Assembly (NCBI GenBank): GCA_039621445.1
Contig: CP154954.1
Coordinates: forward strand, 5,987,693-6,051,692
Length of the DNA: 64,000 nucleotides
Source of the DNA: Euglena gracilis
Taxonomy: Eukaryota
Reading direction: 5' to 3'
Under the pieces are notes generated by a model, which was given only the letters and a program-made list of their open reading frames with translations, was not told the origin of the DNA and ran no database searches. This document shows positions 16,663-19,600 of the stretch, piece after piece (the stretch's first letter is position 1; the number at the start of each line of letters is the position of its first letter). The position numbers and the translations under genes are program-made.

Positions 16663-19600
16663 TCACTCCGGGTCGTCCTCAGGAGTTTTTTTTTTTAAGG
16701 ACCCTTGGATGGGGTCCCGCGGGCCACGCTGCCTAGACCCCCCGAGGGTCTCTTCAGCCGAGTTGGGCTGACCCATGGAACACCCCGCCTCCCCAAGCGG
16801 GCCTTTAGCCCATACACCACACCCACCCACTCTCGACAACCCATCGTCCCATCCCCCGCCGGAGGGGGGTCGTGCACAAGAGTGGATATTGATATTGGTT
16901 TTAGGGGGTGCCGATAAATTTGGATAGATTGACACCCTGATATCCTCGATGAAAGTCGATAAAACCGATATGATCATTTTGTGCCCTGATGTCCTCAATT
17001 TTCTGATTTGGAGAATCCCAAAATCGGCCAAAAACAACAAAAAAGTACGTTACCCCCCCCCCCCAATAAAGCCGATATTTCACGATGATTTTTCGGGACC
17101 CGATGAATTCAAGATTTTCGACAAACCTGATATGGGCCGATATCCAATATCCATCCTTGTTGCGCAGGGGTTAAATCAGTGTATGGTTGGGATCTTTCAG
17201 CCAAAAATTTGAGGTGAAAACCAGGAACCTGTCAAAATGTCTTTTTTTTTCTGGCAATTTCTGACCGGGTTTCAAACCACACTTTCGGTCCTCTGTGCCG
17301 AAAACTTTTTCGGTCCTGCCGAGCTTCGCTGGCTGGCCCACCCTTTCTTTCAGCAGATCCCGGGGGGGTCCACAGCTTGGTTGGGGAGCTGCTGGCTGGA
17401 AAAAGGTGCTGGCCAGCTGGATCCCCCCCCCCCCGGGGGGCAGGGTCCCCTCAAGCTTAAGCTTCAGAAGTCCCCTGATCGTCGTACTTGCAGTTGGCGC
17501 CGTCCAGCTTGGCGAGCAGGCCGGCCAGGTCGCCGTCCCACACCTTGCCCTGACCCACGGGGCCCAGGGCACATCGGGGGGGGGGGGGGGCGGGCGATCG
17601 GCTGCTGCCGACCCGCGGATTTCGGCCATCGGCGGAGTTGGATCAAAATGCGCGTCGGGGGTAAACTGAACGAGCCACCCGAGTTGCGGCAAACGCACGT
17701 ATGTTACATTTTTTGTTTGACACGACAGCAAGGGTACGCCACAAACAAACTGCGATGACAAATCACCCCGTACTAAAGAATTTTGGTGCTGTTCGGCCCA
17801 CATATTGGCCAGAACATTGAATTTGAGAGCAAAGGTGCTCCATATCACAACGCCATTAAAAGTAAATTTCTCATATCGGACAAAAAGAACCCCCTTCCTT
17901 CGGTCAAAAATGAAACAAAAAAATAATGAAAAATTAAACATTCTCTCACTTGTGTAGGATGGGAAACATGACTTGGAAAAATGGTGGCTGCGTGTGAATG
18001 TGTGATGGGTGGTCATTTATTCAAAACGTGTTGGCCGAAAACTGAGAGAACAGCTTTGGCATGCCCACCAGACTTAATCTGAGGCAGACTGCCGGTGTCC
18101 CCTGCCCAGGGTAGGATCCCAGGTCGAAGGACCGGTTCAGAGCCTCTGGGGTGGTCAGGCACTTCACACAGGCGCAGGGGTCGACGCAGCCGACCCAAAA
18201 GAAAGGTACTGTGTCCACAGACAGAAACGTCAGAAGCTTGTGTGGAAAGAAGAAACCCCAATAAACGATATGTGGGGAAAACATACGAATATAAATAAAT
18301 TTAATAATATGACGTGAAATAAAAACATGCAATGTGAACATATAAATATATGAAGGAATTTATGAAAGACCTCAAAAATTTGCTGCTCATTGTTGGGAAT
18401 CAGTGGCAACCAGCGACCGGCAACACAAGGGGTTCCTCCATTCCGTCCCAACACCCAAAACAAATCAAGCAACCCAACACCTGCACAGAACGTGGACTTC
18501 GGCAACTTCGAGTGGTCAGGTAACTTTAACAAACCAAAGGATAAAAGAACCCCTCAACGTTCTGAAGAGGGATCATTGGCGTCGAACGCTGTGCAAACCT
18601 CCGCGACGTCCTCGCGGGGGATGAGCCGGTTTTCGGTTTCGAGCAGAGTGGGCCAGATGCAGTCCGTGGGGACCCGGGCTGGGCATTTCTGGCGCCACCG
18701 CCACAAATCCAGCCGAGTAGCAAATTTGAGCAAAAACTTTGAGATGAAGACCCCAAAATCCACAAAAATGCTACCTTTTTCACAAAAGTTGGTGCTTTGA
18801 ACCGAAGAATTTTATGTCCGGGCTGGCCCCAACTTTACTTTAGTGGATCCTGGGGGGTCCATACAGCCTGCTGGCTGGACAAAAAGTCCTGGCTGGCTGA
18901 ACCCTGCTTCGGGGAAGGGGTTTTGCAAGTTTATAAATGCCACTATTTCATGGATTTGTTGGTTGATATCGCTTCAGCTGGGTTTACATCAAACAATTAT
19001 ATTTTTTAAATGGTTTTTTTACCGTCCTACCCATTTGGGTAATGGCCACATGGCAACAAATGATGACTTCCTGGGACAATGCAAATTGGCAAACTGTCTG
19101 TAGATGGCAGGTGGACACACGGCTTTCTTAAAAATAACAGCAACCAACTAACTAAAAAGGATTCAAAAGTCTGCCAGACATGCACTGGGTAGACTTTTGC
19201 CCATAAAAGCAAGAAGAGAAAGGCAGGAAGCCCGACAGTTTTGATCCGCGGTGCCATGGGGCTGCATCTGGGTGTCATCCACGCCCACGATGAGCTCCCG
19301 CTCACCCCCCGGGGCCGGGGTCTTCTGATTCGGCGGATGCGGGCAACTGACGCCGAGGCTGGGCTGTGGGCTGGCCGCTGGCTGGGTCCTCGTGTGCCCG
19401 GCGTGACCAGCGTGACCGGCGTGACCTTTTGCTTATTCCTGACGCCAAAAAAAAATGCCAAAAGATGCTCCCGGAAAATTGATCGAATGTGTTTTCAAGT
19501 CGAAAGTTGGCGAGACAAAAAAAGACGACATGTGCCATAGCTAAATAATTTTAAATTTTGAATTGCAAAGAATCCAAGGAAAAATTTCCGAAGGTCCAGC

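Follow-up and report, generated by a model that had tools for sequence, protein, structure and literature searches.

We analyzed a 64-kb window of Euglena gracilis DNA (by the window we mean this whole stretch; copies of repeat families were counted within it rather than genome-wide). The window contains two unrelated genes on the minus strand, one for an SDR-like protein and one for a CXIP4/SREK1IP1-like zinc-knuckle protein, and three mutually similar elements, which we call c1 (16680-17477), c2 (59849-60250) and c3 (14333-14922). Two of these elements, c1 and c2, interrupt coding exons of the two genes, each within an interval that is probably spliced out as a nonconventional intron. The genes, the elements (candidate miniature inverted-repeat transposable elements, or MITEs) and the introns that contain them are listed here.

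16663-25891, minus strand: SDR-like gene (NAD(P)-binding, NAD_binding_10 / NmrA type), about 11 exons and 10 introns
52582-61538, minus strand: CXIP4/SREK1IP1-like zinc-knuckle gene (zf-CCHC_3), 10 exons and 9 introns
16680-17477, plus strand: c1, putative MITE copy in the last coding exon of the SDR-like gene, termini CAGGAGTTTT... and ...AGAAGTCCCCTG
16672-16679 (left, GTCGTCCT) and 17478-17485 (right, ATCGTCGT): putative 8-bp duplication of c1, match 6/8
16877-17159: AT-rich element nested in c1, with its own imperfect inverted termini (by eye)
59849-60250, plus strand: c2, 402 bp, perfect 12-bp inverted terminal repeat CAGGGGTTTTCT and AGAAAACCCCTG
59841-59848 and 60251-60258: 8-bp duplication of c2, GCCCCGCC, perfect (8/8)
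14333-14922, plus strand: c3, 590 bp, termini CGGGGAACTTCTTACGGACC... and ...AAGAAATTCCCTG
16675-17480, minus strand: predicted last SDR intron, 806 nt, contains c1; GAT-CAG...CTG-AGGAC, then G
59844-60253, minus strand: CXIP4-like intron 2, 410 nt, putatively nonconventional, contains c2

The zinc-knuckle exon of the CXIP4-like gene matches zf-CCHC_3 (E 1e-6). A 40-aa translation around this exon retrieved P0001, a protein derived from an E. gracilis transcript (EukProt EP00667_Euglena_gracilis, EG_transcript_22677), which maps onto ten minus-strand exons from 61538 to 52585 with 84-100% identity per exon. A second relative, P0002, is an open reading frame (ORF) on a 621-bp NCBI contig and is 85% identical when compared with window positions 59773-61538. 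For the SDR-like gene, a protein search with an internal exon found the Euglena longa orthologue P0004, with which the gene was mapped (exon identity to this E. longa transcript 63-94%). When the last SDR exon served as query, the only match was P0003, a genomic ORF on a Logan contig that reads through intron 9 into c1; c1 therefore occupies this site in a second source too.

In the two genes together, 19 introns were inferred, each bounded at its best protein-guided position (for 2 of the 12 introns that fit the splicing code given below, the fitting position lies within 2 score units of the best). Twelve have the nonconventional geometry and one (SDR intron 1) is GT-AG, which leaves six without a clear class. 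Among the twelve, ten have the CAG/CTG pair, CXIP4-like intron 3 has GAG/CTC, and CXIP4-like intron 6 has CAG/GTG together with a perfect 8-bp repeat. The first base of the downstream exon is a purine in all twelve. A recognizable duplication has been kept in three of them (8, 8 and 6 of 8 positions), and the others match at 1-4 of 8. Intron 3 of the CXIP4-like gene (59165-59700) also contains long (GAC/GTC)n and (GAA/TTC)n-type microsatellites, and its termini pair as GAGGCCG with CGGCCTC, not as CAG with CTG.

Homology and termini of c1, c2 and c3

The three elements were compared by self-BLAST, by a more sensitive BLAST and by global alignments scored against 100 shuffles each, the last after the nested 16877-17159 insert had been cut from c1. 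Removing this insert betters the alignment of c1, and no target-site duplication was identified around it. Self-BLAST aligned c1 with c2 over 139 bp (68.3% identity, E 3e-10), c1 with c3 over 51 bp (84.3%, E 5e-8) and c2 with c3 over 36 bp (94.4%, E 2e-10). The sensitive search extended the c2-c3 match to 79 bp (73.4%, E 4e-9) and detected an interior block of 45 bp (77.8%) common to c1 and c2. The global alignments of the three pairs reached z = 14.6, 7.5 and 14.1; they are gappy, aligning 340-392 columns of elements that are 402-590 bp long. Because these scores stand so far from those of the shuffles, the similarity is real and goes beyond homopolymers. It extends over about 130 bp at the right end, which has TGCTGGCTGGAAAA(N1-2)GGTGCTGGC and ...AGCTT.AGAA...CCCTG in all three copies, over 20-60 bp at the left end, where all three have C(A/G)GG..TT.TTA.GGACC, and over the interior block.

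An earlier note on this stretch, whose quoted strings all occur where it had placed them, proposed that c1 and c2 have both ends in common and that c3 is a third copy, outside any recognized gene. The BLAST matches and global alignments bear this out, and a search of the window around c3 found no convincing coding context on either strand. The note had also raised the possibility that only G/C homopolymers were being matched; the similarity includes the right-end motif above and the termini.

With local identities of 68-84%, c1-c3 belong to an old, diverged family and are not recent copies. By the 80-80-80 convention, members of one transposable element family are at least 80% identical over at least 80% of their length, and c1-c3, whose local identities are 68-84% over 36-139 bp, fall outside it. 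Ungapped motif searches of the window recovered the query copy alone, because the copies differ by insertions and deletions. A short degenerate terminus pattern gave 8 matches against 3.4 expected, which is barely over chance. A scan of metagenomes with the right-end motif gave 0 matches, and Rfam and tRNA scans of the window detected nothing.

The inverted termini of c1 match at 8/12 positions and those of c3 at 13/16 (by eye), compared with the perfect 12-bp repeat of c2. The window was then scanned for inverted termini beginning with CAG (at least 9/10 matching, spacing 60-3000 bp), with 100 dinucleotide shuffles for comparison and with flanking 8-mers displaced by 1-12 bases as controls. 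The window has 161 such pairs, and the shuffles have 72 ± 7.5. When flanking 8-bp repeats of at least 7/8 were required, four pairs remained, against a shuffle mean of 0.03 (maximum 1), and the displaced controls gave 0-1. These four are c2, 31632-31797 and 51380-51908 (all 8/8) and 33590-33878 (7/8). The window therefore holds several MITE families with CAGG termini and 8-bp duplications, of which two members other than c2 have perfect termini and duplications:

31632-31797: MITE, 166 bp, 16-bp perfect inverted termini CAGGCTTCTTTTTAAG, perfect 8-bp duplication GCCCCAGA; its ends resemble those of c2 weakly
51380-51908: MITE, 529 bp, 16-bp perfect inverted termini CAGGGATGGATGGGAA, perfect 8-bp duplication GTCAGACA

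A search for ORFs across the restored sites of the other MITEs with perfect duplications was uninformative, the DNA being GC-rich, and tandem and palindromic repeats dominated the output of a de novo scan for any 8-bp repeat with inverted termini. Inverted CAGG termini with an 8-bp duplication are what we take to be the signature of the hAT superfamily, and c1-c3 are provisionally assigned to it. In most MITEs with CAG termini (31632, 33590, 37234 and 51380), poly-G/poly-C pairs, GGGGGGGTC(C/G)GGACCCCCCC, form subterminal palindromes, and for this reason the window is rich in homopolymers.

Predicted introns around c1 and c2

Knock-ins in E. gracilis have defined a nonconventional splicing code, 5'-N3-CDG...CH'G-N5-6/R (the slash marks the junction), with a 5' spacer fixed at 3 nt and a preference for 5 nt in the 3' spacer (PMC12501133; here and below, papers are cited for their accessible text). 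Both c1 and c2 lie in intervals with this arrangement: the boundaries have no GT/GC-AG pair, CAG occupies +4 to +6, CTG occupies -8 to -6, and a G follows downstream.

The E. gracilis transcript reads ...THAAAAGQVAATKG... over the c2 site (also written ...THAAAAGQVAATKGTCKRCG...), which equals the window minus the element and minus exactly one copy of the 8-bp repeat. Nine equivalent ("slidable") boundaries would give this product. GT/GC-AG occurs in 0/9 of them, 0/7 in-frame GT/GC-AG choices yield the transcript peptide, and 1/9 fits N3-CAG...CTG-N5/G, namely GGC-CAG...CTG-GGCGG/G. In the minimum-energy fold of the c2 intron, positions +4 to +15 are paired with -6 to -17 in a 12-bp stem. Left unspliced, c2 brings in-frame stop codons. 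The transcript-derived protein comes from a non-identical allele or paralogue, and it is from this protein that we infer an intron around c2 at this locus.

Removal of c1 according to the code would give a protein ending in ...ANCKYDDPE before the stop, and the E. longa orthologue P0004 ends in ...ANCKYDEPEWP; the code-spliced product is collinear with E. longa ...LGGANCKYDEPEWP. Of 21 GT/GC-AG choices, 0/21 yield an end collinear with the orthologue, and reading through into c1 reaches a stop after 6 extra codons. Thus, the published code and the collinearity with E. longa both point to a predicted intron around c1. The c1 duplication has two substitutions, and both sit within the 3-nt and 5-nt spacers that the code removes, so that what remains in the mRNA still adds up to the inferred 8-mer. 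This placement is consistent with the predicted splicing, weakly so, since two random hits would manage it about 1 time in 4.

Protein-guided exon mapping agrees with the earlier assignment of c1 to the last SDR intron and of c2 to CXIP4-like intron 2. The note had regarded the family as MITEs acting as introners, with element ends at the splice junctions. The part that stands is that similar introns occupy non-homologous sites in unrelated genes; the spliceosomal GT-AG type does not hold (0/7 and 0/21), and no GT-AG junction coincides with an element end. Each predicted intron instead extends past its element, by 3 nt on one side and by 5 nt on the other.

Proposed origin of the introns and rival explanations

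The comparisons support the view that homologous MITE copies form introns at non-homologous places of the two unrelated genes. We consider it probable that a single non-autonomous DNA transposon, a MITE with CAGG termini and an 8-bp duplication, gave rise to c1-c3, which have since diverged, and that the two copies in coding exons are removed by nonconventional splicing. In the proposed mechanism, a MITE with CAG...CTG termini would land in an exon and duplicate 8 bp. In the pre-mRNA its inverted termini would pair, so that CAG at +4 to +6 lies against CTG at -8 to -6, and the RNA would be cut 3 nt ahead of CAG and 5 nt past CTG. The removed piece would then be the transposon plus one copy of the duplication; the mRNA would return to its pre-insertion sequence with its frame restored, whatever the target. 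Since the 3-nt and 5-nt spacers add up to the 8-bp duplication, splicing would undo such an insertion exactly. The two coding-exon insertions would be tolerated because nonconventional splicing recognizes the stem of inverted termini. The spacer rule may thus reflect the length of the duplication; we infer here a relation of cause and effect.

Several observations weigh against this interpretation. In c1, the ends are unpaired with each other in the minimum-energy fold of the whole intron, and the terminal stem is just 6 bp, including one G-U (by eye). The flanks of c3 match at 3/8, which is no evidence of a target-site duplication, and what places c3 outside genes is an absence of recognizable coding sequence. 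The 8-bp duplications are not unique to hAT, as other superfamilies also make them, and a domain search for a transposase found none among the 20 longest of 130 stop-to-stop ORFs of at least 140 aa. The three elements are homologous by sequence, yet old and diverged. As for the transcripts, P0001 differs from the window by a few substitutions and two small indels and therefore comes from another allele, paralogue or strain, whose gene copy could simply be without c2. P0002 continues without a break where introns 1 and 2 would lie, departs from the protein at intron 3, and may represent a paralogue or relative with neither of these two nonconventional introns. As P0002 is uninterrupted, copies without c2 may exist, which would fit a recent gain of c2 but weakens the proof of splicing. 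For the SDR gene, the protein search recovered no E. gracilis transcript protein.

These points give room to the possibility that the insertions are simply retained here, in an allele or paralogue that keeps c1 and/or c2, so that the SDR protein ends at the read-through and the CXIP4-like gene here would be a pseudogene or have its function covered by another copy. The non-identity of P0001 to the window and the uninterrupted P0002 (85%) would suit such a history, and so would c1, whose read-through stops after 6 extra codons, a mild change, and is found as the same ORF in the second genomic source, P0003. We nevertheless regard retention as unlikely: all exons of the CXIP4-like gene (10/10) and all recognized SDR exons are open and conserved, unspliced c2 brings in-frame stops, and c1 and c2 satisfy every element of the E. 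gracilis splicing code proven by knock-ins (PMC12501133). Less probable still is that direct repeats and motifs arose separately, the repeats through repair of double-strand breaks and the common motifs because splicing needs impose them. Break repair has been proposed for the 8-nt repeats at a new Euglena agilis intron (PMC4770533), CAG/CTG are functionally required (PMC12501133), and elements whose termini differ share the GGCTGGAAAAAGG..TGCTGGCTG module. Yet the homology of c1-c3 far exceeds the 3-nt motifs shown to matter, the full-length c3 and several CAG-terminated elements with perfect 8-bp repeats lie at places without a recognizable exon, and the repeat length is sharply 8, the displaced controls giving 0-1.

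We give the least credence of all, indeed hardly any, to classical spliceosomal introners, in which the MITE would carry or create GT-AG sites and the spliceosome would take it out, as it does in Micromonas or Aureococcus. A GT inside the c2 terminus (ggg/GTTTTC) and an AG after the duplication (CGGGGCAG/g) would give an in-frame product, and introners of this build are known (PMC11282704). However, the GT-AG product of c2, ...AAAAGPGVAATKG, differs from the E. gracilis transcript, ...AAAAGQVAATKG, none of the choices for c2 (0/7) or c1 (0/21) fits spliceosomal removal, and GT-AG stands at the best-scoring boundary of only 1/19 introns of both genes.

If c1 and c2 are MITE insertions removed by nonconventional splicing, a wider reading suggests itself, which we offer tentatively and hold at somewhat less than an even chance. 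The nonconventional code would be an RNA-level "undo" matched to one class of CAG-terminated, 8-bp-duplicating MITE, and nonconventional introns, about 70% of all Euglena introns, would for the most part descend from such MITEs. The spacer rule would be a fossil of the staggered cut made by the transposase, and the excision machinery would have co-evolved with these elements or been recruited from them. For the MITE hypothesis, the window supplies probable introns that are recognizable as copies of a repeat family, intact inverted termini with 8-bp duplications, and relatives outside recognizable exons. It lends support to the old idea that nonconventional introns started as transposon insertions, it would give the spacers of 3 nt and 5 nt a simple arithmetic reason, and it makes the question of MITE origin testable genome-wide.

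Other repeats in the window and comparison with known systems

Beyond c1-c3, the window contains partial members of the family and elements that resemble it in part:

18705-18937, plus strand: partial family copy (interior and right-end module) inside SDR intron 7
33008-33329, minus strand: partial relative of c2 in inverted orientation; 130 bp at 70% (E 7e-14) and 86 bp at 69.8% (E 5e-7)
7946-8319, plus strand: different MITE, termini GGCGTCGCTTAGT and ACTAAGCGACGCC, unlike those of c1-c3
58120-58584, plus strand: relative of the 7946 element, inside CXIP4-like intron 4
57774-58618, minus strand: CXIP4-like intron 4, inverted termini CAGGCCCCCC and GGGGGGCCTG
55110-55627, minus strand: element of CXIP4-like intron 6, perfect 8-bp direct repeat CCCCCGCC, inverted termini 10/12, different family

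A profile of the right end found 7 further matches at E < 1e-3 in the window. One, at 18819-18937 (profile positions 6-133 of 140, E 8.8e-9), belongs to the partial copy in SDR intron 7, an intron that has its own 10-bp inverted termini, CCAGATGCAG and CTGCATCTGG. Another, on the minus strand at 33055-33008, falls in the partial c2 relative, which also gave the only left-end profile match beyond c1-c3 (33094-33036, E 0.005). Two lie in the 7946 element (7966-8044 and 8227-8309, E 1.4e-6 and 3.9e-5), which holds the GGCTGGAAAAAGG(C)TGCTGGCTG module twice, and one in its relative at 58120-58584 (58155-58228, E 5.8e-8); a further match, at 59892-59939, is the left half of c2 itself. Among the related interiors that had been listed for c1-c3, the one at ~32940-33320 corresponds to a partial, inverted copy (33008-33329). 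Those at 7946-8319 and 58120-58584 are each other's relatives (142 bp at 75%) and have only the GGCTGGAAAAAGG..TGCTGGCTG module, a 40-80-bp motif, in common with c1-c3.

The profile also matched 27276-27350, around a mini-element of 43 bp (27300-27342) with termini CAGGGATT and AATCCCTG on either side of the family GCTGGAAAGAATGCTGGCTG module. It has no flanking duplication and may have arisen by deletion. A second family of MITEs, with termini CAGGGTTCGATATAAGG and CCTTATATCAAACCCTG, has copies at 37234-37625, 30877-~31260 and 60716-61049 that match by BLAST at 73-76% over 190-340 bp; the last is nested in nonconventional intron 1 of the CXIP4-like gene and the other two lie elsewhere. Another intron/non-intron pair is a repeat of about 84% identity at 13000-13549 (no recognized gene) and 23531-23954 (in SDR intron 2). 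A long palindromic element has inverted 253-bp arms of 97.6% identity at 6100-6350 and 6565-6817, whose ends hold the same GGCTGG...module as the 58147-58190 region. Near the window start, a dense cluster of direct and inverted repeats (549-1751) has units of about 40-120 bp at 73-100% identity, and a CA/GT-type microsatellite lies at 15974-16085.

Turning to known systems, MITEs of the hAT superfamily have the same 8-bp duplication and short inverted termini starting with CAG, and are likewise non-autonomous and shorter than 1 kb. Giroux is said to have described, in 1994, a maize Ds insertion that was processed as an intron.

For Euglena, a MITE origin of nonconventional introns was proposed in 2014, in a paper that noted the lack of any identified transposable element in euglenids (PMC3935182). 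In 2016, a new intron of E. agilis was reported to have 8-nt direct repeats, which were read as possible break repair (PMC4770533). CAG/CTG positions and repeats like target-site duplications have been described in Euglena nonconventional introns, which leave after the conventional ones, as circular RNA, and probably independently of the spliceosome (PMC11282704). The 2025 paper on the code states that the origins "remain unclear" (PMC12501133). Our literature search found no paper with families of sequence-similar nonconventional introns, with non-genic copies of them, or relating the 3/5-nt spacers to a duplication of 8 bp, although subscription papers and supplements, such as the intron datasets of PMC12501133, could hold such data.

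Among known systems, the introns around c1 and c2 most closely resemble other euglenid nonconventional introns (E. gracilis, E. agilis; PMC12501133, PMC3935182, PMC4770533, PMC11282704), in the lack of GT-AG, the CAG/CTG pair, the terminal stem and the downstream purine, and also in boundaries that are "slidable" because of direct repeats. In the accessible text of these papers, however, such introns are handled as sequences unrelated to one another, whereas c1 and c2 are copies of one repeat family, with inverted termini and 8-bp duplications of transposon grade and with a full copy and fragments elsewhere. The introners of Micromonas, Aureococcus and dinoflagellates (PMC11282704) are likewise MITE-like, with inverted termini, a duplication and similar introns at non-homologous sites. 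They are described there as removed by the spliceosome, with one splice site from the element and one from the duplication; for c1 and c2 no GT-AG pair works, and they fit the euglenid code at fixed offsets from the termini. The introner elements of Amoebophrya, an alveolate (PMC7789003), have non-canonical boundaries, inverted repeats of 8-20 nt, direct repeats overlapping the junctions and a proposed relation to MITEs, all of which c1 and c2 parallel. As far as that paper's accessible text goes, the direct repeats of Amoebophrya are 3-5 nt long and variable, and there is no family-specific inverted-repeat motif, in contrast to the 8 bp and constant CAG/CTG seen here.

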